From an uncultured Lachnospiraceae bacterium (GTDB taxonomy: Bacteria; Bacillota; Clostridia; Lachnospirales; Lachnospiraceae): 64,000 bases of DNA. Positions 35,369 to 49,527 of the stretch are shown piece by piece. The stretch lies in NCBI GenBank assembly GCA_902770965.1, contig CACXUY010000014.1:1841-65840 (forward strand), written 5' to 3'. The stretch's first letter is position 1. The number at the start of each line of letters is the position of its first letter. The position numbers were made by a program, and so were the translations under genes. The notes under the pieces are model-generated. The model worked only from the letters and a program-made list of their open reading frames with translations. It had not been told where the DNA came from and made no database searches.

Positions 35369-35440
35369 GGTTCCTTGGTCAAGCGGTTAAGACGCCGCCC
35401 TCTCACGGCGGAAACAGGGGTTCGATTCCCCTAGGGACTA
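35369..35440 (+). tRNA. tRNA-Glu (anticodon CTC)
   Basis: The acceptor stem GGTTCCT pairs with AGGGACT (two G-U pairs). The anticodon stem-loop is CCGCC-CTCTCAC-GGCGG, and the T arm is AGGGGTTCGATTCCCCT. Confidence 0.85.
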
Positions 35441-35441
35441 T
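35419..35441 (+). repeat. left copy of 23-bp exact direct repeat (tRNA-Glu 3' end; att-like)
   Basis: GGTTCGATTCCCCTAGGGACTAT is identical to 47088-47110. Imperfect similarity continues for about 60 nt more, through a terminator-like hairpin, on both sides. Confidence 0.9.
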
Positions 35442-35999
35442 TGAAAAAGACCTCTCATCGAAGGTCTTCTTTTTTTGTTTTGGAAGGGGTGAATCAGGGA
35501 AACAGGGGAGTCAGGGTGAGACACGTGGACTCAGGCGAGTCCACATGACTCTTTTGAACATATGTAGTAGAAATATAGGATGGAAGCTGATTCGCGGATC
35601 ATAGACTGTTTTGCAAGCGGCGGTTTGGTTTTTGTTGATACTTATTCCCAGACGTAAGTGCGGGCTCTTTGCAAGGCGTATGTTTACATTAGGTTCATGG
35701 CATCTTATCATTTTAGTATGATATATTGTGTATGAATCACGACATCGCATGAATATATCTTGTAATTAGACGCTCTGTTTGCTATGTTTATTTGGTCAGA
35801 CACGTCGAGACTGATTTGTCAGTAACCCCCCATGCAGGATGCTGCCCCACCATGCATATAAGCCTGGGGGGGTAATGTCCATGCGGGGCATGCACACGGC
35901 CGCGCAGAGGAAGGTGCCGGCTGAATGCGACGCACGGTCGGCGCAGCTCGCCGCAAGCGGCGAGTTTATATAGTAATCATGAACAAGGAGACTTGGAAG

Positions 36000-37031
36000 A
36001 TGTCAAAAATAACACCCACTCCATATCAGGATATTTATTCCGAAATCAAAGATGCGCTATTACTTTCCCGTAACCAGGCCTATAGTGCGGTCAATTTTGC
36101 AATGGTTCAGGCATACTGGCACATTGGGCGAATCATCGTGGAGCACGAGCAGAACGGAAGCCTTCGTTCCGAATATGGAAAGGGTGTGTTGAAGGATGTG
36201 TCAGAACGGCTTCAACAGGAGTTTGGCGATGGGTTTTCTGTTCGGAATCTGCAACAGATGAAAAAGTTCTACGCTACTTTTCCAAATGCGAACGCACTGC
36301 GTACGCAATTGACCTGGACACATTATCGCGCTTTGCTTCGCGTGGAGGATGACATAGCGCGAAACTGGTATATAGAGGAGTGCATTAAATCCGGATGGTC
36401 GAGTCGACAGCTGGAGCGGCAGATTTCCACGTTATACTACGACCGACTTTTGGCTAGCAGGGACAAGTCTTCTGTAATTGCGGAAGCGGGAGAATTGATG
36501 AAACCGCTTGAGGCAGAGAGCTTTATCAAAGACCCTTACGTGTTGGACTTCCTCGATTTGAAAAACTACCCTGCCCTGCGCGAGTCCGATCTGGAACAGG
36601 CATTGATCGACAAATTGCAGGAGTTTCTGCTGGAGCTGGGACGCGGATTCTGCTTTATTGCAAGACAGAAACTCATGCGGTATGAAGACGAGGACTTCTA
36701 TCTTGATCTTGTCTTTTATCACAGCATTTTGAAATGCCACGTACTGATCGATCTGAAAATCGGAAAGCTGACACATGCCGACGTTGGCCAAATGGACAGT
36801 TACATCCGTATGTTTGATGCGCTATACAAAAACGATGACGACAATCCTACGATTGGGATTATCCTTTGTTCTCAGAAAAATGAGGCTATTGTTAAGTATT
36901 CGGTGTTGAACGATGCGAAACAAGTCTTTGCTTCTAAGTACCGTCTGACGTTGCCCACAGCAGAGGAATTGCAACGGGAGATTGAGGAAGAAAGACGAAA
37001 AATCGAGGAAAGAGGGGAATCGAGAAACTGA
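36000..37031 (+). CDS. YhcG-family (DUF1016) PD-(D/E)XK nuclease
   Basis: AVNFAMVQAYWHIGRIIVEHEQNG, LTWTHYRALL, GRGFCFIARQ and DLVFYHSILKCHVLIDLKIGK are typical of YhcG/DUF1016. ATG 36000 follows AAGGAG. Confidence 0.75.
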   Translation: MSKITPTPYQDIYSEIKDALLLSRNQAYSAVNFAMVQAYWHIGRIIVEHEQNGSLRSEYGKGVLKDVSERLQQEFGDGFSVRNLQQMKKFYATFPNANALRTQLTWTHYRALLRVEDDIARNWYIEECIKSGWSSRQLERQISTLYYDRLLASRDKSSVIAEAGELMKPLEAESFIKDPYVLDFLDLKNYPALRESDLEQALIDKLQEFLLELGRGFCFIARQKLMRYEDEDFYLDLVFYHSILKCHVLIDLKIGKLTHADVGQMDSYIRMFDALYKNDDDNPTIGIILCSQKNEAIVKYSVLNDAKQVFASKYRLTLPTAEELQREIEEERRKIEERGESRN

Positions 37032-37043
37032 GGAGGCACATAG

Positions 37044-37511
37044 AATCTCTCTGTGCTACGTTCCCGTGGCAGCTATACCGTCATCGACAAGATCACGGTC
37101 AGTCTGAATATCAAGCGCGATGTCTATGAGGCCGAGTTCTCCAATCTCGGTCTGAAGGCTGTGCCGATTTCTGACGAGTACCCGGATTTGGTGCATCGTG
37201 CAGTTGGATTACGAATACATCGAAGAGGATAAGAAGAACGGCAATCCCATTCAGATTCGGAAGCTGACTCCGATACAGCTTTCCTTGACTGTATGCACTG
37301 CTATATTCCCGGTTGGGAGATTCCAAAGTTTTGTCCGGAGCATTTCACGAATGACTACGGATTCATTACGGACTACCTCGCCGAATATATCCGGGAGCTG
37401 CGGAAGGAACAGTACGGCGATGCGCTGGCTCACTACTTCCACCTTGGAAAAAATCTGAATCAGCGCGACACCATAGCCGTGCGCAGGATAGTTGTATTAA
37501 ACGTCAAATAA
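37044..37511 (+). pseudogene. brxL: remnant of a brxL-type (BREX Lon-like protease, TIGR02688) gene
   Basis: Three frame-shifted pieces. They read VIDKITVSLNIKRDVYEAEFSNLGLKAV (N-terminal region), VQLDYEYIEED...PIQIRKLTPIQ, and DTAFLDCMHCYIPGWEIPKFCPEHFTNDYGFITDYLAEYIRELRK...LGKNLNQRDTIAVR (C-terminal region). The AAA+ core and both gene ends are missing. The match is from my memory of BrxL sequences. Confidence 0.5.
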
Positions 37512-37528: not shown

Positions 37529-39217
37529 ATGGAAGAAAAAACGGTTTACAGTTATCACACCTTTCTATATCCCTTTTTGTGGAATGACATAGATGGGAAT
37601 CACAGTATTGATGTCTTTGAGACAAAATTAAAACTGGAAAGTGCAGGCTGGTCTCAGGATGATATGGTTTCTAAAAAGAATGGTGAAATTAATCTGACCA
37701 GTGTTGTCAATAATGAGTCCCAAGATGAACAACGACTGGATTATCAGACATTTCAGTATTTTAATCCGGCTGCAAGAAAAGCTCTCTTTCGGGAAGATGG
37801 AGAAATAGTGCATGGTTGGAAGTATCGTTCGGGTGACGTACATAATAAAGCAGAATATAAGATATTTGAAAAAGGAAGCGATAATCCATATGTTTTGAAT
37901 ATAAATCATATCCGTCTCAGACTTTTCAATACCGGTGTAGGGATACTTGTGTTTGAGTTGGAGTACCCTATGCCGAACGAGGGAGTAAAAAAAGCACGGC
38001 AGGATATCAGAGCGATCAACGAGCTTGGTAGAAGAGTTTTTCCGGAGTTCCTTCCTGAACAGCCAGAAATTTTCATGGGAAGCCTTTTTGCCACGAGAAT
38101 AGAAATTGTTGTTGATGAGAATCATTTTGAAGAGAATTTGTACTGTCGTTCGGGGTTGCATGGAGAACAAAGCTACCTTAGAGATCCGTTGCATAAGCAG
38201 AGTTTTTTATTTACGCTTTTAGGCTATGATAGCAATAGTACAATCTCTATAACACCAGCTGTGGATGATAGGATGTTTGTCTGCTGCTGTATAATGGATC
38301 CGGATTATACAGAACATTTTTTATATCGTTCGTATCAGGATCCGTCTTTAGAGAAGACCGAATTATCGGAAGAAGAAAAGAAATTTAGTATGCAAAATAA
38401 GCAGCCTATGTTTCTGGATAACTGGGATGTTGGTACGGAATTATATGCATTGACCAATATTGATTATAAAGATAGCAGTTGTCAGAATCGGGTGATGCTG
38501 AACCAATACTTTGAAGATCAACTATATCTTAGGTGGACTGAGATCGGGTATAGCACGATTTATTCGGTGACAAACCATTCGATGATATGTTTGACCGGAG
38601 ATAGGAAATATGTTACTGCGCCAGTTGTTAATCCTTTCTTGATTGAATATATCCAACTTTGTATATTGGTTCTTGCTCAGAGGGCATCTTTGATAGCCTT
38701 TGATAGCAGAATTACAGAGGCTATTTCCAGGGATGACGAGAAAGAGATTATCACTGACAAGTTGTTAACATTATCCAAAGATTTTGCTAAGTTTCAGGGG
38801 CAAATCCTGATTCCTGAGGCTACTCCTCAAATACAAGGTATAGAGCTTTATGGAAAGCTGCAGAGGATGCTCTTTATTGAAAAACTTCAAAATAACGTAC
38901 TCAGTCAGATGAGCAGTCTTTCTGGAATGGCTCAATATGAGCAGGAACGAAGACAGCAAAAAATGGATAAAGATCTTGAAGAACAACAATTTAAGACAGG
39001 CTTATTCTTCAACGTGATAGCAGCGGTTACGATAGTTTCGGTTCTGATTGATTTATTTAATTATATAGTCTGGTTTGTTTCTCCTCATGATGATATATGT
39101 CTTCCATCATGGTGGATAATGATGATTATTGATGTTATATTGATTTTAACTGTCGCGGGAAGAAGTATAAGCTTGATCCATGATAAAAAGAAGAAGGAGA
39201 AAGAGAAGGATGAGTGA
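37529..39217 (+). CDS. corA: CorA-like membrane protein, candidate type III CRISPR accessory effector
   Basis: 562 aa. It has a large soluble N-terminal region and a predicted long helical segment (KLQNNVLSQMSSLSGMAQYEQERRQQKMDKDLEEQQ). Two TM helices sit at the extreme C-terminus (GLFFNVIAAVTIVSVLIDLFNYIVWFV; WWIMMIIDVILILTVAGRSISLI), followed by a KKKKEKEK tail. There is no GMN motif. Its stop overlaps the cmr1 start. Confidence 0.6.
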   Translation: MEEKTVYSYHTFLYPFLWNDIDGNHSIDVFETKLKLESAGWSQDDMVSKKNGEINLTSVVNNESQDEQRLDYQTFQYFNPAARKALFREDGEIVHGWKYRSGDVHNKAEYKIFEKGSDNPYVLNINHIRLRLFNTGVGILVFELEYPMPNEGVKKARQDIRAINELGRRVFPEFLPEQPEIFMGSLFATRIEIVVDENHFEENLYCRSGLHGEQSYLRDPLHKQSFLFTLLGYDSNSTISITPAVDDRMFVCCCIMDPDYTEHFLYRSYQDPSLEKTELSEEEKKFSMQNKQPMFLDNWDVGTELYALTNIDYKDSSCQNRVMLNQYFEDQLYLRWTEIGYSTIYSVTNHSMICLTGDRKYVTAPVVNPFLIEYIQLCILVLAQRASLIAFDSRITEAISRDDEKEIITDKLLTLSKDFAKFQGQILIPEATPQIQGIELYGKLQRMLFIEKLQNNVLSQMSSLSGMAQYEQERRQQKMDKDLEEQQFKTGLFFNVIAAVTIVSVLIDLFNYIVWFVSPHDDICLPSWWIMMIIDVILILTVAGRSISLIHDKKKKEKEKDE

Positions 39218-40556
39218 TCATCATAATTCACCATATTGTAGGTTAGTAGAACTCCGGCAGTATACTCCTTTATTACATTTTCAGGGAGATACAGAGGGAG
39301 CTTGTTTGCGTGCATCAGAAGTGAAGCCAAAGCTGGATCGTTTCGTGTGGGATTATCTTAACAGAAATCAAATCAGCATTCCGGAAAGTTGGCAGCTTAA
39401 GAACATGGATGAAGAGTCTCCATATGAACCAGCTTTACGATACAAGATGCGGTTTATGGGAAATATGAAGAAAAGAGAAGATAAGAAACATCTTCTTTAT
39501 TTTGCGCAGAACATGGACGGTACTTCAATAGCTTTAGAAAGCTTATCTAATACCAGGATGACGATTATTTCTCTGGTCAAAGATCGTTTGGGAACAGACT
39601 GTCCACTTTACAATAATAAATATTTGGAGAATCCCACTATCTGTGAGTTGATTGACGCATTACTTCCCGCATTCTTCTGTCTGCATTGTTTTGGAACAAG
39701 AAATGGAAAAGGCTTTGGAAGCTTTGAAATCGTAGGAAGTACTATAAGCGATGAGGAGATTGATTACTATAAAGAACGAGATTGTATGAAAGTATACCGT
39801 TTGTCATCCAGTCGAAATTCATATTCGGACATGAATTGTCTGGATGATATTTATGTCCTTTCGGGTATGATGAAGGGCGGTTTTAATCGTCCATATTATA
39901 AAGGAGATATTCAAAAATATCTATGGAGAGAGAACATAGGTTCAGAAAAATCGTTTATAAAGCAAGAGATATTTCCTAATGAGACGGTAAACAACACAGG
40001 AGAATCATTATTGGACTGGTATAATAATGATCTTTGTGGGGGAAGAAATCATAGACCTCAAAAGGTATATAAAAACAATCAATTTCTCCGCGCCATGTTA
40101 GGATTAACTGATCACTATGATTATTTTTTCTACAATAGAAATTTGAAAAAACGCGTAGTTAAAACGATATGGGTAAAGTCGAAAAACAGTGAAATAACAC
40201 GTTTTGCGAATCCTATCCGCTTTAAGCCATGTTCTGGAGGTTTTCGTATACTTGTATACAGGATACCGAATGCGATGTTAAACAAGTCGCAAGCATCGGA
40301 AGACAATGGTTTTGAGTTTTCTTTTAGTTCCAAGCAATATACGCTTTATACACCAGAATTTTTTGATCTTGTGGCTTTTATGCATTATTTCCTTTCTCCG
40401 TTTCACGATAATAAATCGAGAAAGTCGCATAATTGGGAAGCGTTAAAAGATAAAAGTTATCAGCTGTATTATGGCAAAAATAATAGCCAAACTCGGTTTT
40501 TTAATGATACCCTTGATAATCTCCGGATCGCGTATGGATGGGAGGAATCCATATGA
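39210..40556 (+). CDS. cmr1: type III-B RAMP protein Cmr1 (divergent, long)
   Basis: It is the first gene of a cmr1-cas10-cmr3-4-5-6 order. It has YTPLLHFQGD...LRASEVKPKLDRF, the G-rich loop FGTRNGKGFGSF, and RFANPIRFKP. ATG 39210 lies inside ATGAGTGA, overlapping the upstream stop. Confidence 0.6.
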   Translation: MSDHHNSPYCRLVELRQYTPLLHFQGDTEGACLRASEVKPKLDRFVWDYLNRNQISIPESWQLKNMDEESPYEPALRYKMRFMGNMKKREDKKHLLYFAQNMDGTSIALESLSNTRMTIISLVKDRLGTDCPLYNNKYLENPTICELIDALLPAFFCLHCFGTRNGKGFGSFEIVGSTISDEEIDYYKERDCMKVYRLSSSRNSYSDMNCLDDIYVLSGMMKGGFNRPYYKGDIQKYLWRENIGSEKSFIKQEIFPNETVNNTGESLLDWYNNDLCGGRNHRPQKVYKNNQFLRAMLGLTDHYDYFFYNRNLKKRVVKTIWVKSKNSEITRFANPIRFKPCSGGFRILVYRIPNAMLNKSQASEDNGFEFSFSSKQYTLYTPEFFDLVAFMHYFLSPFHDNKSRKSHNWEALKDKSYQLYYGKNNSQTRFFNDTLDNLRIAYGWEESI

Positions 40557-42199
40557 ATAAACAGTATGTAGGTGTTACCATAGGCCCCATTACCGATACA
40601 TTGATGCTCACTTCCTCGCCTGCCGGTCTTTGGGGTGCAAGTTATCTCTTCTCGTGGATTAGCCGTAGATTGATTCATTATTTAGTGGTTGATTATAAGG
40701 TTGAGCAGAGTCGATTTGTAGCCCCCTTTTTCTCAGTGAAGAATAACGAGATCTTTCTTCCTGAAGAAAATGATATCGATTATGAGGATATGTGGAAAAA
40801 GGGAATTGGCCTGTTTCATGATCGTATAATATTCTGTTCAGATAGTTTAACAAACCCACTTGAAATCGTTGCGAAGGCCAGAGAAGCTGTCATTTGCGAA
40901 CTCACAGAAGAAATAGCTAGAATAGAATCTAAAACAGAATCTACGACAAATAAGAAGGATATATATGAGTGGCTGGATGGTTATATACGGATTTATGCTG
41001 TTCAAAGGGAGAGCGCATCTCCACTACTAGATTTGGGTGCTGATCTAAGTGCAATGGAACTGGAACCTCATTTTTTCGGGCTTGAAAAGTATAATCATCT
41101 TTTGGGTATTTTTGAAAATATAATTCCTTGCGATGAAAATCATTCACATATGGAGCTGGGGATGAAAAATAAGCTGATGAAGCAATTCCTGCTCTCTCAT
41201 CGTGATGAAGATGCCTGGGTGCTTTATGATAATAATCATATGATAAAAGATTTACAGGATATCGCAGCGAATGGTGCAAATCCTGTAATGAAACACACTC
41301 AGTATTATGCTGTGCTGAAATCAGACGGAGACAGTATGAGCAAGATACTGGAAAACTTGATTGACGATGAAGAAGTCCGAACCTATAGTAAAAAATGCCT
41401 TGGTTTCTGCGCAAAGGCTGCTCAGCAGATATATAAATACGGCGGTGTGCCTCTTTATGCGGGTGGTGACGACCTGTTGGCTCTTTTGCCGTTAACCGGC
41501 ACGCACCCTGAAAATCATGAGAAATGTACCCTTTTTGGCTTAATAAATTATATACGCACATTGTTTAATGGGGTGTTTAAAGAGGATAGAGAAAGATTTA
41601 ATGGCATGCCGACGATATCTTTTGGTATCTCAATACAATTCTATAAAAGCCCGTTGTTTGAGGCACTGGAGCGAGCAGATGGATTACTGTATCGTGCTAA
41701 ATTGGGATTAAAAGATGCATGCTATCTGCATCTGCAAAAACATAGTGGACAATCTGTATTGTTTACCGAAGAACGTCTTAATTACGTTAATGAAGAAGGC
41801 GACAATTTGATTTCCGCTTTGGACAAGTTGTTAACAAATACGAGAATCGGTGATATCAATAATGACGATGCTGTTCTTTTTCTGTCTGGTCTAGGATTTA
41901 CATTGGAACAATATAAAAATTTGTTTTACCTGGCTATCGAAAAGACAAAGCGAACAGATGCGATTTTAGAGAATCTGTTCGCTAATCTCTTTAGCAATGT
42001 GGATCAAAAACAATTTGAACCTTATATAACCGAAATAAAAAAATTGACAGTGCAGCTCATCAGAAAGAATAGTGAGAATGAAGCAAAGGCAAAAAGAAGG
42101 CAGAATGAAGCAAATCAGGGCGAAGGAGTTATGTCTCAGCTTCAGGCCATAATTCGACTATTGCATTTTATGAGAGAGGGGGGAGCAGAGAAAGAATGA
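40553..42199 (+). CDS. cas10: Cas10/Cmr2 large subunit lacking the HD domain
   Basis: It starts directly with the Cmr2 block YVGVTIGPITDTL...GLWGASYLFSWI. It has YYAVLKSDGDSMSKIL, the cyclase motif LYAGGDDLLALLP (GGDD at 41462-41473), and ISFGISIQFYKSPLFEALERADGLLYRAK. It is only ~548 aa with no HD-type N-terminus. Confidence 0.8.
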   Translation: MNKQYVGVTIGPITDTLMLTSSPAGLWGASYLFSWISRRLIHYLVVDYKVEQSRFVAPFFSVKNNEIFLPEENDIDYEDMWKKGIGLFHDRIIFCSDSLTNPLEIVAKAREAVICELTEEIARIESKTESTTNKKDIYEWLDGYIRIYAVQRESASPLLDLGADLSAMELEPHFFGLEKYNHLLGIFENIIPCDENHSHMELGMKNKLMKQFLLSHRDEDAWVLYDNNHMIKDLQDIAANGANPVMKHTQYYAVLKSDGDSMSKILENLIDDEEVRTYSKKCLGFCAKAAQQIYKYGGVPLYAGGDDLLALLPLTGTHPENHEKCTLFGLINYIRTLFNGVFKEDRERFNGMPTISFGISIQFYKSPLFEALERADGLLYRAKLGLKDACYLHLQKHSGQSVLFTEERLNYVNEEGDNLISALDKLLTNTRIGDINNDDAVLFLSGLGFTLEQYKNLFYLAIEKTKRTDAILENLFANLFSNVDQKQFEPYITEIKKLTVQLIRKNSENEAKAKRRQNEANQGEGVMSQLQAIIRLLHFMREGGAEKE

Positions 42200-43368
42200 A
42201 ATATTGGAAAATAACCCTAAAACCTTTAGATGCTTATTTCCTGGGAGGGGAGCGAAATGTATTTTATCAAAACAATCCGGTACAACGTTCCGAACGAAGA
42301 CCTTATTTTATTCGTTCCAATCATATGATTTCACAGTCCGCTGCGTTTGGAGTACTACGATATCTAGGTATTCATAGCCCAAATGCTAATTATCGTTTGT
42401 CGTCTGAGGATATAAAAAATATAGGAGACAGAAGCTTTAGCATCACACGAAACCAACAAGGATACGGTCGCATATGCAGTATTTCCCCCGTGTTTCTATG
42501 TGATCAGGAAGGTAAACGGTACGTAGCTGCTCCGTGTAATCGTGTTAAGGCTGATTTTGAATGCTGCTATGATAAAGAGCATCCAAAGATGCCGTTTGTT
42601 TCCTTTGAAGCCTTCCGACGTGTAATAACCATGGATGGTACACGGTATTTACCATCTGAGTATAATGAGAAAAGGGCTTGTGACCCATCAGATCTGCTAT
42701 GCTTAGAAACAGGTGACGTCATATCATCCCCTTTTTCTACTCAGATACGTACGGGAATCAATAGAGAAAGTCAAAAGCTAAAGCAAAATGGAAATCTGTC
42801 GGACGATAATCCTAGTGGTTTCTTTAAGAAGGAATATATTGTTCTGGATAGAGACTATTCCTTCATGTTTTATGCTGAAACAGAAGATGGTTTTTTTATT
42901 CACCGTGATACAGTGGTTTACATAGGACAGGGAAGAACGCCTTTTTCTGCTCATGCAGAAGATGCACAGAAAAAGTGGGATATTGATTTACCGGTTTGTT
43001 GCCGACCGTCAGTTGGAGCAAAATGGGAAAGCGCAACGGTAATTTCTGACATGTTCTTTGATGGGCATATAAAAGAACTAAAAAGGCTGTGCTCATTGAT
43101 GATTTCATCTATCAGGGATCATCGGTGTATGGAAACAAATTACTCGGCAGAAAATGCGGGCAACCGATATAGTAAAAAGGAAGCATTAAAACTGATACCT
43201 GCCGGTAGTGTGTTTTTGTTTATGGGAGACGATAACGGTAAAGAACCGAAGGATCAGCTTTGTCATTTTCGAAATACGCTGATAAAAACCCGTTATTGGG
43301 ATAGCGCTTTGCGCGCCGGCTTCAATTATGTACTATATAGCGATATTCAACAGAATGGAGGACAATGA
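42196..43368 (+). CDS. cmr3: type III-B RAMP protein Cmr3
   Basis: ITLKPLDAYFLGGERNVF...SQSAAFGVLRY (Cmr3 N-terminal pattern), ISPVFL, and its position after cas10. It has an ATGA overlap with cas10. Confidence 0.7.
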   Translation: MKYWKITLKPLDAYFLGGERNVFYQNNPVQRSERRPYFIRSNHMISQSAAFGVLRYLGIHSPNANYRLSSEDIKNIGDRSFSITRNQQGYGRICSISPVFLCDQEGKRYVAAPCNRVKADFECCYDKEHPKMPFVSFEAFRRVITMDGTRYLPSEYNEKRACDPSDLLCLETGDVISSPFSTQIRTGINRESQKLKQNGNLSDDNPSGFFKKEYIVLDRDYSFMFYAETEDGFFIHRDTVVYIGQGRTPFSAHAEDAQKKWDIDLPVCCRPSVGAKWESATVISDMFFDGHIKELKRLCSLMISSIRDHRCMETNYSAENAGNRYSKKEALKLIPAGSVFLFMGDDNGKEPKDQLCHFRNTLIKTRYWDSALRAGFNYVLYSDIQQNGGQ

Positions 43369-44171
43369 TTATGTCAAATATACTGTATAGGTTAACATGC
43401 CTTACCAACCTTCATATGGGGAGCGGAGATATAAACTATGATGTGATAGACTTGGAAGTAGAGCGCGATCCGGTATTAATGGAGCCAACAATGAATGCTA
43501 GCGGTGTCAAAGGTGCCCTTCGGGATTATTGTAAGAAAACTATGTCTGATGATGATTTGCTGTTTGTATTTGGCGGCAAAGCAAAAAATGATGATGATAA
43601 CGGAGCTCAAAGAAATAATCAAGGGACACAGCAGGGGTTTTACAATTTTTTTTCCGGAGATATGTTGGCTCGTCCTATAAGAATATCTGAAGGAGAAGGG
43701 GCATATCTGCTTGCTACAACGCCAGATATTCTCAAAACGCTTTTGCGTAAATTACATGCGTTTGGGTTTTGCATCGGCTATAATGAGAATGATATTCCGG
43801 CTCTGCCGCAAGATGGTTCTGTACTATCCCCGGTAAATATCATAAGTGTTGAAGGACAAAAAGTTACAAATGGAACGTGCGCATATTTATCTGCTCTTCT
43901 TGGATCTGACCATTGGGTTTTGATGAGCAGTCAACAGTTAAGGGATATTGATCTGCCGGTTTTAGCTCACAATGTATTGGAGGATGGTATCAGCAAGAAT
44001 CTATGGTATGAGCAGGTTGTTCCTCATGAGAGTGTTTTCTTGCTGATCATATCAGGACTGGAAAACGACGATAGATTAAGTAAGACGTTAACTAAAAAGT
44101 GCATGGTTCAGTTTGGCGCGGGAGCTACCACTGGAAACGGTTATACCTTGATGGAACAACTGGAGGTATAA
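43365..44171 (+). CDS. cmr4: type III-B backbone RAMP Cmr4
   Basis: CLTNLHMGSGD...VIDLEVERDPV...ASGVKGALRDY (RAMP motif with candidate catalytic Asp) and the C-terminal G-rich loop FGAGATTGNGYT. Confidence 0.75.
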   Translation: MIMSNILYRLTCLTNLHMGSGDINYDVIDLEVERDPVLMEPTMNASGVKGALRDYCKKTMSDDDLLFVFGGKAKNDDDNGAQRNNQGTQQGFYNFFSGDMLARPIRISEGEGAYLLATTPDILKTLLRKLHAFGFCIGYNENDIPALPQDGSVLSPVNIISVEGQKVTNGTCAYLSALLGSDHWVLMSSQQLRDIDLPVLAHNVLEDGISKNLWYEQVVPHESVFLLIISGLENDDRLSKTLTKKCMVQFGAGATTGNGYTLMEQLEV

Positions 44172-44175
44172 ACAC

Positions 44176-44601
44176 ATGAACAAGAAATTAGTGAATGAAC
44201 TCATTCCTTTAGCATATCAGGAATTAGATTCAGTAGGTATTGCTCAGAACGGTGAGATCTCAAAGGGCTTTCGTGGCCAGATTGCTTCTTTTGGTGCAGC
44301 AATAGCCACAGGGTCTTTGCTGGCGGCATCGGCATTCTTTAATGATCAGGGCGGCTCTAAGAGTGAACGCCATAAGCTAATGGTGGCCATTAACAATATG
44401 TTGGCTTACAAGGATATGGAGAATGGTTGCTTAGTACAAAATCAAGGAAATACCTTATTTGATACTGTAAAAATATGGATGAAGGCTCACAATGGTTCTG
44501 ATAGGGAGATTAAAGAAAAAGTGCTTTCGTGTGCCATAGCCTTAAAACTTGCCATGAATCTTTACTCACTGAAACCAGAGAAAAAGAATAAAAAAGGCTA
44601 A
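44176..44601 (+). CDS. cmr5: type III-B small subunit Cmr5
   Basis: 141 aa and helical. FRGQIASFGAAIATGSLLAASAFF resembles the Cmr5 core. It lies between cmr4 and cmr6. Confidence 0.65.
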   Translation: MNKKLVNELIPLAYQELDSVGIAQNGEISKGFRGQIASFGAAIATGSLLAASAFFNDQGGSKSERHKLMVAINNMLAYKDMENGCLVQNQGNTLFDTVKIWMKAHNGSDREIKEKVLSCAIALKLAMNLYSLKPEKKNKKG

Positions 44602-44622: not shown

Positions 44623-45540
44623 TTGAACCAGCATTATGAATTTTGGGTAAAATACTATGAGAGGTTGATAGAATCCGATACTGCATTTGCTGAAGCGCTT
44701 AATATTAATAATGAAAATTTGACGAAACGCATTTGGAAAACAGGAAATCGGGAAATCCTTCCGGGATGCAATGAAGAACCCTTCTCTGGCTGCAAACATC
44801 TACGATTGGAGGTGAATTATCCTGGCTTGTTAGTAGGCATAGGAAACGCTCATGACAGTGGGAAGAAATTTGAAGATAAAGACAAAACCGACAGGACAAA
44901 AAAGAAAGATAAGAAAAAGGATACACCAGAAGAAATAAAACTGGGAATACTATTAGACTCAGTAACCGGTTTGCCGTTTTTACCTGGAAGCATGTTGAAG
45001 GGGATATTGCGCTCGGCATTCTTATATAATGTTGATTATATTAAAGATTTGCTTCAGTATATAGATTCTTCTTTATTGCTGACCGCCGAACAGGTAGAAG
45101 AATTAGAACTGGATATTTTCGGACATCAACACCCTTGCCATAATTATGAAACCGATATCGAAGCAGGGACAGGAAGAGATGTTTTTTTTGATGTTTATCC
45201 AATTCAGCCGGATGGGAAAAGTCATCTGATTGGTATAGAAAACATCACATCTCACCGTGCTAAAAACCGTAAGCTCGATGGCTTAACAAAACTCAATCCA
45301 CTTACGCTGCTAAAGATTATGCCGGGAGTAGTGCTTTTGTTTAGGTTTTATCTGAATGATACTGATTTAAAAGATGGAATCAGGATTACAGCAAATCATA
45401 AATTAAATCTTTTTAAACAGATACTGCTTGATTTGGGCGCTGGTGCAAAGACAAATGTGGGCTTTGGCGTGTTGACAGATACGAAAAACCCTGAGGAAAC
45501 GGACAAGTATTATTATCTGGAAGAAATGCACAGAGATTAA
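44623..45540 (+). CDS. cmr6: type III-B RAMP protein Cmr6
   Basis: GLPFLPGSMLKGILRSAF, DIFGH, DVFFDVYP and the G-rich loop LGAGAKTNVGFGVL. The TTG start is 7 nt after GGAGGAGG. Confidence 0.75.
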   Translation: MNQHYEFWVKYYERLIESDTAFAEALNINNENLTKRIWKTGNREILPGCNEEPFSGCKHLRLEVNYPGLLVGIGNAHDSGKKFEDKDKTDRTKKKDKKKDTPEEIKLGILLDSVTGLPFLPGSMLKGILRSAFLYNVDYIKDLLQYIDSSLLLTAEQVEELELDIFGHQHPCHNYETDIEAGTGRDVFFDVYPIQPDGKSHLIGIENITSHRAKNRKLDGLTKLNPLTLLKIMPGVVLLFRFYLNDTDLKDGIRITANHKLNLFKQILLDLGAGAKTNVGFGVLTDTKNPEETDKYYYLEEMHRD

Positions 45541-45564
45541 GAACTAAAATCATCATTTAGTAGA

Positions 45565-45594
45565 AACCTCCTGGTCCATCTCAGGAGGTTTTTT
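45565..45594. terminator. bidirectional terminator between cmr6 and the convergent DUF3791 gene
   Basis: AACCTCCTG (45565-45573) pairs with CAGGAGGTT (45582-45590), then TTTT. The same hairpin recurs at ~48962-48990. Confidence 0.65.
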
Positions 45595-45799
45595 CTGATA
45601 CTCTCTTATAATAATCCCTAAAATAATCCGGTCCCTCTGCCCAAAGTGCTGAATCGAAATCGAGCAGGCATTCGTAAGCTTTTGATTCAAGGACTTCTTT
45701 TCTGATTTCGTCAATTGGTTTTCCACTTTCGGCGGCCATATCTTCAATAGCAAGGGCTAATGTCAGAGCAGCGCATGTATTCATTGTTTCATATGACAT
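45581..45799 (-). CDS. DUF3791-like small protein
   Basis: 72 aa. It lies downstream of, and overlaps, a DUF3990-like gene, which is the triad arrangement I recall from Clostridia. Confidence 0.5.
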   Translation of the reverse strand: MSYETMNTCAALTLALAIEDMAAESGKPIDEIRKEVLESKAYECLLDFDSALWAEGPDYFRDYYKRVSEKTS

Positions 45800-46367
45800 A
45801 TTTCCTCGCCTCCTGAAACATCAGACAGCTTATAACTTTTTCAGTCAAGAAGCAGAACTGATCTTCAAGCTTATCAGGCAAAAGCCTTTTGATTGTATCA
45901 TTTATCGCTTCGTCAGATTCTATATCTCCATACAATTCGCCAAGATAAGCTGTGATGGTTGTATTTGTTTTATCATTTGCAACTTTTCCGATAATGATTT
46001 CCGCACTAAATATTCTGGGGTCAATTCCTGGTTTTAGTTGCGTGGCAAGATGTTCTCGTCTGTTCTGCGCGATAAACCAGAGCCATTCTTTATTAGTTGT
46101 AGGAAATTCATAAAAATCTATTCCCTCTTTCGGTGCTTTGAATCTAAAGGATAAAACAAAACCAAAGTCTTGGTCCATCGGCAAATCGCCAGTATTTACT
46201 GCTTTTCGTATGGATGATTTAATAAAAAGCCGGGCTTGATTTAGGTTCGAAGTCAGATAAAAGCCCTTACCAAAATCCTTACCTTTATTGCACATCGAAA
46301 GGTCGATTGTCTCAACAGGGGCATAGCTTCCGTGAAACAGGAGCATGCCGTCTCTTAACTTGGTCAT
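45789..46367 (-). CDS. DUF3990-domain protein
   Basis: MTKLRDGMLLFHGSYAPVETIDLS...GKDFGKGFYLTS is a typical DUF3990 N-terminus. It has an ATGA overlap with the upstream DUF3791 gene. Confidence 0.6.
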   Translation of the reverse strand: MTKLRDGMLLFHGSYAPVETIDLSMCNKGKDFGKGFYLTSNLNQARLFIKSSIRKAVNTGDLPMDQDFGFVLSFRFKAPKEGIDFYEFPTTNKEWLWFIAQNRREHLATQLKPGIDPRIFSAEIIIGKVANDKTNTTITAYLGELYGDIESDEAINDTIKRLLPDKLEDQFCFLTEKVISCLMFQEARKYVI

Positions 46368-46576
46368 ACACATGCCCCCTTTTTCTGTAGAATGCGAACG
46401 ATACCATTGAGAATATACTCGTCACCGTTCATGTGAAGAACATCATAGCACTCTTCGATATATTTCCAGATGCCATAGTTTTCAAATAAGCGATTAGCGT
46501 CCGCAGGTTTCAAATTAAATTTACGAACGAAATCACTAAAAACCCTTGCTTCCATAAACAGTATCTCATTAACCAT
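46364..46576 (-). CDS. DUF3791-like small protein
   Basis: The start is MVNEILFMEARVFSDFVRKF, preceded by GGAGGA. The ORF-track N-terminal extension has no support. Confidence 0.55.
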   Translation of the reverse strand: MVNEILFMEARVFSDFVRKFNLKPADANRLFENYGIWKYIEECYDVLHMNGDEYILNGIVRILQKKGACV

Positions 46577-47087
46577 GACCGTATCCTCCGTAGAAAAGCA
46601 TAACATATTTATCTGATAACATAAAGAACGATTTTTACTGTTTACTAGAAGGTATTCCGGTATGAAGGGAAAAAAGGTGGTTTTCAGCGGGATCAAAGGA
46701 TCCTGCCGGTTTTCCGGAGTTGACCGTACCGCTCTTGCGTTGCTCGCCGTAGGCGAGTTGCTCCACATTGGAAAAAATAGCAGCTTTAGATTTGGACGTT
46801 ATACCATGCTGAGTCCTCGAGACTAGCTGGGCGAATCAAGGGCGAGCGGACGGCAGGGACTGTTCTGTTGTCCGCTTTTAAATCTGATACAAGATACAGG
46901 ATGTCCGCAAATAACACCAGAATATTGGTGGATTCTTGGTGAACATGGTGCCAATATATCAATAAAAAAACTAATCAGGTTAGAAAAAGTATAGCATGAC
47001 CGTGCAAAACATGGGCAGAAATTACTATATAGTTTGACAAATCGATATACAGAACAAAATAATTCAAAATTGTTCTGCAAATGCAAT

Positions 47088-47110
47088 GGTTCGATTCCCC
47101 TAGGGACTAT
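47088..47110 (+). repeat. right copy of 23-bp exact direct repeat (partial tRNA-Glu 3' end; att-like)
   Basis: GGTTCGATTCCCCTAGGGACTAT has no tRNA 5' half upstream. It is followed by a hairpin (AAAAAGACCTCTCAGCAGAGGTCTTTTT) similar to the one after the intact tRNA-Glu. Confidence 0.9.
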
Positions 47111-47438: not shown

Positions 47439-48011
47439 ATGATGACCATCCGAGAGAAATTAAAAGATAAAAACATGTCTGTATACCGGCTTGCCAAAGC
47501 TAGCGAGCTTCCCTATGCGACTGTAAACGATATTTGCAGCGGCAAAGCGCAGCTGGAAAAATGCAGCGCCGAAACGATCTATAAGATTGCCAAAGCACTG
47601 GACGTTCCCATGGAGGAACTGCTTGCCCCCTGCTTCCTCAAACGCAGCAGTTTTGAAAACTTCAAAAGCAATATCTGCCACCGAGTCAAAGAGCTGGGCG
47701 ATATAGACTTTCTTATCGAAACGCTGGAGAGCCATGACATCCGGACCTATTATGAGCGGAAATGGTATCCTGAAAGCCTTTACCTCCTTGCCATGCTGGA
47801 CTATATCAGCCGGGAAAATGATGTTCCCCTTGTCAGCGAATACGACGACATCAGGCGGTGCAGGCTGGAAAAACCGGTTTATCCGGCCAGTCTCCGGGCT
47901 GTTTCAGCGGCGGCCAGAAGCGACGCCGCGCTGAAAGAGGCAGAGAAAACGGCGATCCCGGAGTTTATGCGGTTTAACATTATAGAAAGCGAAGTGCGAA
48001 ATGTCATCTGA
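47439..48011 (+). CDS. XRE-family HTH protein (putative antitoxin/regulator)
   Basis: The N-terminal HTH reads MSVYRLAKASELPYATVNDICSGK...TIYKIAKALDVPMEELL. The stop overlaps the next start by 11 nt. Confidence 0.65.
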   Translation: MMTIREKLKDKNMSVYRLAKASELPYATVNDICSGKAQLEKCSAETIYKIAKALDVPMEELLAPCFLKRSSFENFKSNICHRVKELGDIDFLIETLESHDIRTYYERKWYPESLYLLAMLDYISRENDVPLVSEYDDIRRCRLEKPVYPASLRAVSAAARSDAALKEAEKTAIPEFMRFNIIESEVRNVI

Positions 48012-48774
48012 ACGCAGCGTTGAGTTTACAAAAGACAATATTGACATCTACTTGAAAGAGGTTGCGAAGGAATACCGGAAACAGGTTGGGAAGGGAATGC
48101 CCGCCGAACTGATCCTGATCGGCGGTGCTTCCGTCCTGATCAATTACGGATTCAGAAATATGACCACCGATATAGACGCCTTGATCCGGGCGGCTTCCAG
48201 CATGAAGGATGCGATTAGCAGGGTTGGTGATCGTTTTGGCCTTCCCACCGGCTGGCTGAACGCCGACTTCAAGAACACGGACTCCTACACCCCGAAGCTC
48301 GAAGAGTTTTCCTCCTATTACAGAACCTATTCCAACGTACTGTCAATCCGTACCGTGAAAGCGGAATATCTGATTGCCATGAAACTGCGATCCGGCAGAC
48401 AGTATAAGAGTGACCTGTCCGATGTGCTGGGCATTCTGGCGGAACATGAAAAAAGAGGAACGCCTATCACGATGGAGCAGATACGAAAAGCCGTGACTGA
48501 CCTGTACGGCGACTGGACATCTCTTTCGGATGTGTCTCAGGCGTTTATAGAAAATGTCATGGCGGACGGACGGTTTGAACAGCTTTATGTGCAGACGGCC
48601 CAGGGTGAGAAGGAAACGAAGGAACTTCTGATCCGGTTTGAGAAGGACTATCCGGGCGTAACGAAGGAGTCCAATGTGGACGCTATCGTCGGTAATCTTC
48701 AAAAGAAAGCGGATAAAGCTTCCATCCTTGCCCAGCTTCGGCAAAAGAAGTCCAAAGGCATGGAGACAATTTAG
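48001..48774 (+). CDS. Pol-beta-fold nucleotidyltransferase-like protein (DUF6036/AbiEii-like), putative toxin
   Basis: LILIGGASVLINYGFRNMTTDIDAL matches the GG/GS-x(n)-DxD nucleotidyltransferase pattern. AEYLIAMKLRSGRQYKSDLSD is typical of this family. It is translationally coupled to the HTH gene. Confidence 0.55.
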   Translation: MSSERSVEFTKDNIDIYLKEVAKEYRKQVGKGMPAELILIGGASVLINYGFRNMTTDIDALIRAASSMKDAISRVGDRFGLPTGWLNADFKNTDSYTPKLEEFSSYYRTYSNVLSIRTVKAEYLIAMKLRSGRQYKSDLSDVLGILAEHEKRGTPITMEQIRKAVTDLYGDWTSLSDVSQAFIENVMADGRFEQLYVQTAQGEKETKELLIRFEKDYPGVTKESNVDAIVGNLQKKADKASILAQLRQKKSKGMETI

Positions 48775-48957
48775 GAGAAGAACCCGCGAAAGAGGAATGA
48801 CCGGGAAAGATAACCGAATATTGAGCTTGATACTAGATCGGGCCGGGAATGTTCAGACCGGAATATTCAGAGGGGTGACTCACCCCTCCTCGAGATATTT
48901 TATGATGCCGTCTGCGGAGATCTTGGCCTGGCAGACGATGAAAGATTTCTTTAAGCT

Positions 48958-49527
48958 GAAAAACCTCCTGATCCATCTCAGGAGGTTTTTTCTGATACCT
49001 TCTTATAGTAATCTCTAAAATAATCCGGTCCTTCTGCCCAAAGCGCTGAATCGAAATCGAGCAGGCATTCGTAAGCTTTTGATTCAAGAACGTCTTTTCT
49101 GATTTAGTCAATTGTTTTTCCGCTTTCGGCAGCCATGTCTTCAATAGCAAGGGTTAATGTCAAAGCAGCGCATGTGCTCATTGCGTCATATGACATATTT
49201 TTTCGCCTCCTCAAACATCAGACAACTGATAGCCTTTTCAGTCAAGAAGCAGAACTGATCTTCAAGCTTATCAGGCAAAAACCTTTTAATTGTAGTTTCC
49301 GTGAAACAGGAGCATGCCGTCTCTTAACTTGGTCATACACATGCCCCCTTTTTCTGTAGAATGCGAACGATATCATTGAGAATATACTCGTCACAGTTCA
49401 TGTGAAGAACATCATAGCACTCTTCGATATATTTCCAGATGCCATAGTTTTCAAATAAGCGATTAGCGTCCGTAGGTTTCAAATTAAACTTACGAACAAA
49501 ATCACTAAAAACCCTTGCTTCCATTTC
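48958..49527 (-). pseudogene. decayed second copy of the DUF3791-DUF3990-DUF3791 cassette
   Basis: It is collinear with 45561-46560 at high identity. The DUF3990 body is deleted, with a junction near 49295 leaving only MTKLRDGMLLFHG. The distal DUF3791 is disrupted, while the proximal DUF3791 (49333-49524) is nearly intact. Confidence 0.75.

Follow-up and report, generated by a model that had tools for sequence, protein, structure and literature searches.

What signal does a Cas10 protein send when it lacks the HD nuclease domain, and does the system built around it still protect its host? Both questions are raised by cas10/cmr2, a gene on the forward strand of a 64,000-nucleotide stretch (the window) of contig CACXUY010000014.1 from an uncultured Lachnospiraceae bacterium (assembly GCA_902770965.1), where it lies in an operon with a corA-like gene and the other cmr genes of a CRISPR system of type III-B (Cmr). 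We propose, with a probability of about 0.78, that the product of this gene is the large subunit in a Cmr complex of type III-B, of the CorA-associated branch, of the Bacteroides fragilis type, and that the protein is a probable synthase of S-adenosylmethionine-AMP (SAM-AMP). Proteins of this branch begin at the first Palm domain, and their sole enzymatic output is that of the Palm1/Palm2 site with its DGD and GGDD motifs. An HD-less, CorA-linked signalling Cas10 is already explained by published work; the gene described here adds a divergent member from the clostridia, whose identity to any entry of the searched databases does not exceed 49%.

A complete Cas10 core without an HD domain

The cas10 open reading frame (ORF) begins at an ATG (40553) that overlaps the stop codon of cmr1 as ATGA (TGA at 40554–40556), and its product opens with the conserved N-terminal block MNKQYVGVTIGPITDTL...LWGASYLFS. 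An earlier, sequence-only reading of the window had described an ORF that starts directly at the Cmr2 block after a ribosome-binding site, and direct reading of the sequence and homologue alignment both bear this out. The same reading had excluded any upstream extension. This conclusion holds, although the reason is the presence of in-frame stops and not the overlap with the cmr1 stop. Translation of the upstream frame meets a stop at 40517–40519, 12 codons before the ATG, so that no N-terminal domain of ~200 residues can be added; the sole alternative start, an ATG at 40538, would lengthen the protein by five residues.

The identity of the protein is not a chance assignment, because models from three sources agree. 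Pfam Cas10-Cmr2_palm2 (PF22335) matches at 8e-23, accompanied by a weak Cmr2_N match at residues 5–98; the NCBIfam model for type III-B Cas10/Cmr2, TIGR02577, scores 91.7 bits against a cut-off of 79.4; and the PADLOC Cas10b model covers residues 4–514 (3e-46). Residues 251–262 read YYAVLKSDGDSM and include the first Palm2 metal-binding motif. Both the GGDD motif at 41462–41473 and the DGD block preceding it, which the sequence-only reading had called intact, were found as described, and the alignment to characterised Cmr2 proteins that it had recommended shows these Palm catalytic residues to be kept.

The best solved relative is chain B of PDB entries 9LQ5–9LQ8, a 600-residue HD-less protein annotated as 'Type III-B Cas10/Cmr2'. 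A single-sequence search matches it with an E-value of 3.6e-29, placing residue 2 of 9lq5_B on residue 4 of our Cas10, and a profile built from 41 homologues aligns with its residues 2–598 (E 3.5e-80). The AlphaFold model computed from the same 41-homologue alignment reached a predicted local distance difference test score (pLDDT) of 87.7 and a predicted TM-score (pTM) of 0.90. In Foldseek its top matches were again 9lq5–9lq8 chain B, with query TM-scores (TMq) of 0.68–0.73 (0.73 for 9lq5_B). The HD-deleted Pyrococcus furiosus Cmr2dHD matched with TMq values of 0.55–0.61 and target TM-scores (TMt) of 0.55–0.57, the Foldseek probability being 1.00 both here and for 9lq5_B. Coverage of the full-length P. 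furiosus Cmr2 is poorer (TMt 0.40). AlphaFold, Foldseek and the profile alignment all recover the four-domain core of Palm1, D2, Palm2 and D4. Thus, with sequence and predicted fold in agreement, the protein has a complete Cas10 core and no HD domain.

Counting along the alignments places D70 of 9lq5_B in GLFPDRYIF, E151 in LNIIENQE and D328/D329 in GGDD. As these positions match the numbering of Chi et al. 2023, 9lq5_B is most probably the B. fragilis SAM-AMP synthase of that study, an identification made by residue numbering alone.

The missing domain is not encoded nearby. We scanned every ORF between 35.4 and 49.7 kb on both strands and found no HD or other nuclease family in the neighbouring ORFs except a DUF1016/YhcG PDDEXK protein. 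The HD profile PF01966, which is incompletely sensitive as Cas10-type HD domains are divergent, gave 18 matches genome-wide and none on the cas10 contig. An HD domain on a separate ORF was therefore rejected. Such an ORF next to cas10 is what the sequence-only reading had said would speak against it; none was found nearby or on the contig, and its description of a Cas10 without an HD domain, starting at the Palm1 block with a stop 12 codons upstream and no HD match, stands.

Comparison across the family suggests that this is how these proteins normally begin. M1 aligns with the starts of at least 90% of the 41 homologues, and M1, Y5, T9, G11, P12, T16, P23, W27, S30 and S34 are invariant or nearly so; since the start and the N-terminal block are conserved, the N-terminus is the normal one of the family. 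A protein search returned 343 relatives (E ≤ 1e-5), all of HD-less length, a uniformity to which the search itself contributes by admitting only candidates of 0.55–1.75 times the query length. Those listed are 470–641 residues long and, outside its own cluster, no more than 49% identical to this Cas10. The alignments thus indicate that HD-lessness is an ancestral trait of the whole family and not a local truncation. By itself the trait is not unusual, because Hoikkala et al. 2024 recognised a Cas10 HD domain in only 39% of 1113 type III loci (PMC11229360).

A conserved acidic pair points to SAM-AMP synthesis

A characterised system of this kind is the Cmr system of B. fragilis, which makes SAM-AMP and not cyclic oligoadenylate (cOA; Chi et al. 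2023, PMC10600005). Its Cas10 is HD-less, immunity needs both the GGDD site and CorA, the signal binds CorA, and the D328A/D329A substitution in Cas10 abolishes immunity (PMC10600005). Two acidic residues that are conserved in CorA-linked Cas10s, D70 and E151, adjoin SAM's methionine part in the acceptor site, and when both were exchanged (D70N/E151R), SAM-AMP production was lost and pppApA was formed instead (PMC10600005). In the Cas10 described here these two residues are kept as D90 and E169 (Table 1). Because the acidic pair is retained, the predicted product is most likely SAM-AMP and not cyclic oligoadenylate. The term 'cyclase' used in the sequence-only reading is thus probably wrong as regards the chemistry, for which the D90/E169 pair points to SAM-AMP.

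Across the 41 homologues, D90, E169, D258, D260 and GGDD do not vary. They are also conserved in the Cas10 proteins of 80 related loci from species-representative genomes (mostly Clostridia, some Streptococcus and a few others), the deviations being three proteins with serine for the first glycine and a truncated ORF whose alignment is gapped at the D90 position, which leaves D90 present in 79 of the 80. These loci were fetched with three peptide patterns, one of which was the D90 motif; E169 was not among them. The family-wide invariance of the pair supports both residues as a sequence marker of SAM-AMP-type Cas10 proteins.

The operon and its proposed output

The seven genes of the operon, in the order corA-cmr1-cas10-cmr3-cmr4-cmr5-cmr6, all lie on the forward strand as intact ORFs whose ends overlap or nearly touch (Table 1). 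The CorA-like protein has no match in Pfam, NCBIfam or the PDB sequences. It retains R168-R169 and D246-D247-R248-M249, which are invariant in 61 CorA homologues of related loci. These motifs probably correspond to R152/R153 and D219/D220, which are essential in B. fragilis CorA (Chi et al., PMC10600005). As CorA has no sequence match in the PDB, its residues were compared by family conservation. In Cmr4, the catalytic D29 aligns with D27 of 9lq5_D.

Table 1. Coordinates of the Cas10 gene, its motifs and associated features in the window
Feature	Position	Strand	Description	Basis
cas10/cmr2	40553–42199	+	548 aa, HD-less	Family models, homologue alignment, AlphaFold
Ribosome-binding site GGGAGG	40540–40545	+	7 nt 5' of the cas10 ATG	Direct sequence reading
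D90 codon (GLFHDRIIF)	40820–40822	+	Equivalent of B. fragilis Cas10 D70	Alignment with GLFPDRYIF of 9lq5_B
E169 codon (SAMELEP)	41057–41059	+	Equivalent of B. fragilis Cas10 E151	Profile alignment to 9lq5_B
D258-G-D260 (SDGDSM)	41324–41332	+	First Palm2 metal-binding motif; D258 codon 41324–41326, D260 codon 41330–41332	Aligned to SDGDSM of 9lq5_B
GGDD, G304–D307	41462–41473	+	Palm2 catalytic loop; D306/D307 equivalent to B. fragilis D328/D329	
corA-like membrane effector	37529–39217	+	562 aa	PADLOC CorA 5e-65, residues 3–551
cmr1	39210–40556	+	448 aa from ATG 39210; longest ORF begins at 39180	PADLOC Cmr1 7e-57; start call from public assemblies
cmr3	42196–43368	+		PADLOC Cmr3 7e-20
cmr4	43365–44171	+	Backbone RNase; D29 codon 43449–43451	NCBIfam TIGR02580, 93 bits (cut-off 87)
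cmr5	44176–44601	+	Cas11 small subunit	PADLOC Cmr5 6.5e-39
cmr6	44623–45540	+		NCBIfam TIGR01898, 76.6 bits (cut-off 51.1)
DUF3990/DUF3791 cassette	45553–46576	-	Intact; 72-aa ORF, DUF3990, DUF3791; between cmr6 and the cas6 stump	
cas6 3' remnant	46623–46826	+	Last ~61 codons of a ~310-aa PF10040-type Cas6	PF10040
Second cassette copy	48833–49524	-	Decayed; 72-aa ORF, DUF3990, DUF3791	

By analogy with B. fragilis, Cmr1–6 together with a CRISPR RNA (crRNA) would bind a complementary foreign transcript, and the bound RNA would be cleaved by Cmr4 through D29. Target binding would activate Cas10 to form SAM-AMP from ATP and S-adenosylmethionine, with D90 and E169 taking the place of the basic or neutral residues that would hold the triphosphate of the acceptor ATP in cOA-making Cas10s. 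The signal may then bind the cytoplasmic domain of the co-transcribed CorA-like protein, damaging membrane integrity and halting the infected cell. The sequence-only reading had likewise proposed a signal-dependent defence with CorA as its main output. That view agrees with the B. fragilis experiments, but a defence operating at this locus is not established, because only a stump of cas6, no array and no SAM-AMP-degrading enzyme are present.

Cas6, array and off-switch are missing

Downstream of cmr6, beyond an intact DUF3990/DUF3791 cassette, lies a remnant of cas6. The stump reads ...RRYSGMKGKKVVFSGIKG...HIGKNSSFRFGRY, matches PF10040 at 2.3e-5 (25.4 bits, cut-off 25) and is 48% identical to residues 250–310 of the 312-residue Cas6 of the related locus L068 (E 9.8e-10). 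No other Cas6-like sequence was found anywhere in the host genome, which comprises 78 contigs and is 93.65% complete. The window contains no CRISPR array, and neither cas1 nor cas2 is present in cis. The genome's one cas1 belongs to a type I-C operon with its own array (contigs C12/C36). An orphan array of about 15 repeats lies at C34:24751–25690 amid thyA, folA, a transglutaminase-like gene and an EamA transporter gene, and no cas genes were found near it. The reverse complement of the orphan repeat is GCCGCAATTAGCCCGCCTGAGGGCATTGAAAC, ending in ATTGAAAC; both this repeat and the type I-C repeat (...GGATTGAAAT) end like the repeats of related Cmr loci. If the module works, its crRNAs must come from the type I-C or the orphan array, although the genome offers no Cas6 to process them. 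Type I-C Cas5c leaves an 11-nucleotide handle on its crRNAs, not one of eight nucleotides.

The usual off-switch is lacking as well. Neither the profile of the CorA-linked DEDD nuclease nor that of the SAM-AMP lyase returned anything from the genome, even at E ≤ 10; its four DHH proteins are encoded on other contigs, and no unassigned ORF of at least 100 residues remains in the island that carries the operon. A degrading enzyme was required for immunity in the reconstituted systems of B. fragilis (PMC10600005) and Clostridium botulinum (PMC12255297). Among the related loci with a CorA gene, however, the fetched flanks of about 36 of 62 contain neither a DEDD nor a lyase nor a DHH gene; an off-switch may therefore be dispensable in this clade. 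This survey was crude, as ORFs were picked greedily, some contigs were cut and sensitivity for NrN was limited.

Alternative explanations

Could the missing HD domain be a local artefact, because the 5' end was recently deleted, the start codon wrongly chosen or the sequence misassembled? Only the short length relative to P. furiosus-type Cmr2 would suggest so. The in-frame stop 12 codons upstream, the translational coupling of the start to cmr1, an N-terminus that matches the beginnings of 9lq5_B and of 41 homologues at every position, and the identical gene in six other assemblies leave this explanation with a negligible probability, and the alignments already refute it. A quite improbable, though less extreme, alternative is that the protein is an ordinary cOA-making cyclase, with cOA as the ligand that gates CorA, a mode that has been put forward for the Actinomyces CorA/Csm6-2 clade. 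The GGDD and DGD motifs are generic to all Cas10 cyclases, and Hoikkala et al. 2024 suggest that some CorA clades respond to cyclic hexaadenylate (cA6; PMC11229360). CARF-PDDEXK/Card1-like nucleases, moreover, are encoded beside the cmr genes in at least ten loci of this Cas10 family (L001, L025, L032, L034, L042, L043, L054, L063, L072 and L080). The Cas10 proteins of these loci keep the acidic pair, and seven of the loci also have CorA; in the other three the contig breaks off near the cmr genes, and a true absence of CorA is thus not demonstrated. Nucleases of the CARF-PDDEXK/Card1 type are normally driven by cyclic tetraadenylate (cA4). Either those in these loci respond to another signal than cA4, or the Cas10 family is not as exclusive as supposed. 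Against an ordinary cyclase speak the conservation of D90/E169, whose counterparts when mutated in B. fragilis (D70N/E151R) switched the product from SAM-AMP to pppApA; the relatives, which carry DEDD nucleases or SAM-AMP lyases and not ring nucleases; and the closest solved homologue, which by sequence and by fold belongs to a SAM-AMP-type complex.

The assignment as a SAM-AMP synthase of the CorA-associated branch nevertheless has several observations weighing against it. Because the CARF nucleases occur in at least ten loci, the acidic pair may not exclude cOA synthesis; the invariance of D90 in the 80 loci is partly a product of selection, since its motif was a fetch pattern; identity to the B. 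fragilis Cas10 is estimated at just about 22% from structural alignment; and the locus has no intact cas6, array, NrN, DEDD or lyase. The last point leads to a further alternative, which concerns activity and not identity and can hold alongside the assignment proposed above: that the locus is an inactive relic, with a SAM-AMP-type Cas10 in a module that no longer defends its host. We regard this as a serious contender, at somewhat less than even odds. Only the last ~61 codons of cas6 are left, split from cmr6 by the cassette, which now sits where the order in the closest CorA-bearing relatives is cmr6-DEDD-cas6. The window is without an array, the genome is without Cas6, and neither CorA-linked DEDD nor SAM-AMP lyase is detectable in it at E ≤ 10. 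Fragments of brxL lie just upstream, and the island is flanked by a 23-nucleotide tRNA-Glu repeat with no integrase. Against a relic stand seven consecutive intact genes over 8 kb, with coupled starts and all catalytic residues, and the same protein sequence in six independent metagenome assemblies. The genome also has the type I-C array and the orphan array, with a repeat ending in ATTGAAAC as beside related Cmr loci, and about 36 of 62 related CorA loci likewise lack DEDD, lyase or DHH in their flanks. It is also conceivable, if unlikely, that a corA-cmr1-6 cassette stripped of its own cas6, array, adaptation genes and off-switch still works in defence and tolerates SAM-AMP signalling without a degrading enzyme, armed in trans by the type I-C or orphan array through eight-nucleotide ATTGAAAC/T-like tags. 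The locus is a natural example of an effector module that persists without cas6, array or off-switch, and persistence without an off-switch bears on the question, raised by Chi et al., of why immunity needs a degrading enzyme.

Comparison with known systems

The B. fragilis III-B system (PMC10600005) is among the closest known ones. Both Cas10 proteins lack the HD domain, and their domains follow one another alike from residue 1 to the helical domain at the C-terminus, with DGD and GGDD intact and D70/E151 kept as D90/E169. In both loci a CRISPR-type CorA gene accompanies the cmr1-6 operon, and Cmr4 keeps its catalytic aspartate. They differ in sequence (about 22% identity by structural alignment) and in host, which here is a clostridial-type gut bacterium. 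Whereas corA lies upstream of cmr1 in our locus, it follows the cmr genes in B. fragilis, and NrN phosphodiesterase, intact cas6 and array in cis are absent here.

When comparing the locus with the CorA-bearing III-B loci of Streptococcus oralis and clostridia (the CorA-1 cluster of Chi et al. 2023 and the C. botulinum lyase system, PMC12255297), the Cas10 family (27–38% identity), the Cmr gene order and CorA (27–43%) are shared. Those loci keep a 170-residue DEDDh nuclease or a lyase, Cas6, often reverse transcriptase (RT)-Cas1/Cas2, and arrays; our locus lacks all of these save for the cas6 stump. P. furiosus Cmr2 shares the Palm1-D2-Palm2-D4 core, and the model superposes on Cmr2dHD. However, P. 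furiosus Cmr2 carries an N-terminal HD domain of ~200 residues that is missing here, and has N300/R436 in place of D90/E169 (Chi et al., PMC10600005). The type III-D2 Cas10 of Gammaproteobacteria bacterium HyVt-522 (PMC13294483) is likewise HD-less and signals to CorA by a SAM-derived nucleotide. It differs in its subtype, its fused Cas7 proteins, the toxin–antitoxin module proposed as its degrader and a second product, SAM-AMP2.

Gene content of related loci

Most of the 80 related loci (62) carry a gene for a CorA homologue. A protein of 170 residues with DEDDh exonuclease motifs (VDAETDG...HxAxxD) is found in 24 of the 80, usually beside corA or cmr6, and a SAM-AMP lyase homologue in two (L052 and L057; E 2.3e-18 to 9gad_A). 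Cas6, RT-Cas1 or Cas1, and arrays are common, with repeats ending in ATTGA(A/T/G)AC. The nearest CorA-bearing relatives, L009–L011, are arranged as corA-cmr1-6-DEDD, followed directly by cas6 in L009. This gene content is the known architecture of SAM-AMP systems. No NrN-type DHH protein was found in the 80 loci with housekeeping DHH seeds, a search of limited sensitivity. In the closest relative, L001, a 171-residue protein encoded after cmr6 has no match in the PDB or Pfam; it was considered as a SAM-AMP lyase and rejected, since its alignment shows DEDDh motifs.

Some arrangements in these loci are worth recording. In L001 the CARF nuclease fills the slot upstream of cmr1, with the DEDD nuclease after cmr6. 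An ORF of 156–210 residues without a Pfam or PDB match lies between corA and cmr1 in L011, L028, L039, L048, L053 and L054; the window lacks it, and corA and cmr1 overlap there. The CorA loci of Streptococcus and some of the clostridial ones (L033, L065, L069–L071, L076, L077, L086 and L088) share a TPR-containing protein of ~710 residues, encoded between cmr6 and the gene for the DEDD nuclease.

The genomic island and its other genes

The cmr module resides in an 11.7-kb island of 37–46% GC (the cmr operon ~37–41%), while its flanks have ~49–55%. The island is bounded by a 23-nucleotide direct repeat, GGTTCGATTCCCCTAGGGACTAT, identical to the 3' end of tRNA-Glu(CTC), at 35419–35441 and 47088–47110, and no integrase was found within it. 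Its contents are a DUF1016 gene, brxL fragments, corA-cmr1-6, the DUF3990 cassette and the cas6 stump. The brxL fragments (37053–37511, forward strand) lie directly upstream of corA and match BrxL_N (8e-11) and BrxL_ATPase (6e-24) in different frames. The same Cas10 protein, the other proteins and their arrangement recur identically in the six metagenome assemblies. Sixty relatives of the host yielded one distant Cas10 homologue (33% identity), in one of 36 same-family genomes, so no intact ancestral version of the island is available for comparison. The GC contrast, the tRNA repeat, the gene remnants and the rarity among relatives indicate that the island was horizontally acquired and has been partly eroded.

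A scan for promoters and terminators gave 36 promoter-like sites against 29.6 expected. Antisense ORFs of up to 206 residues within cas10, corA and cmr6 have no family match and were treated as spurious.

DUF3990 gives PADLOC matches to the candidate-defence families PDC-M13/M10, and contigs C8 and C16 encode further homologues. For the III-D2 SAM-AMP system it has been proposed that an adjacent toxin–antitoxin module degrades the signal (PMC13294483); a comparable role for the DUF3990/DUF3791 cassette would be pure speculation. The first gene inside the island (35925–37031, forward strand) encodes the DUF1016/YhcG PDDEXK nuclease. It matches PADLOC PDC-S02 (2e-144) and also a Cas-associated PD-DExK model, and a second copy, 85% identical, is present on contig C5. 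Just outside the island repeat, at 47439–48774 on the forward strand, a coupled pair of genes encodes a helix-turn-helix (XRE) protein and a DUF6036 nucleotidyltransferase, an arrangement resembling a toxin–antitoxin system.

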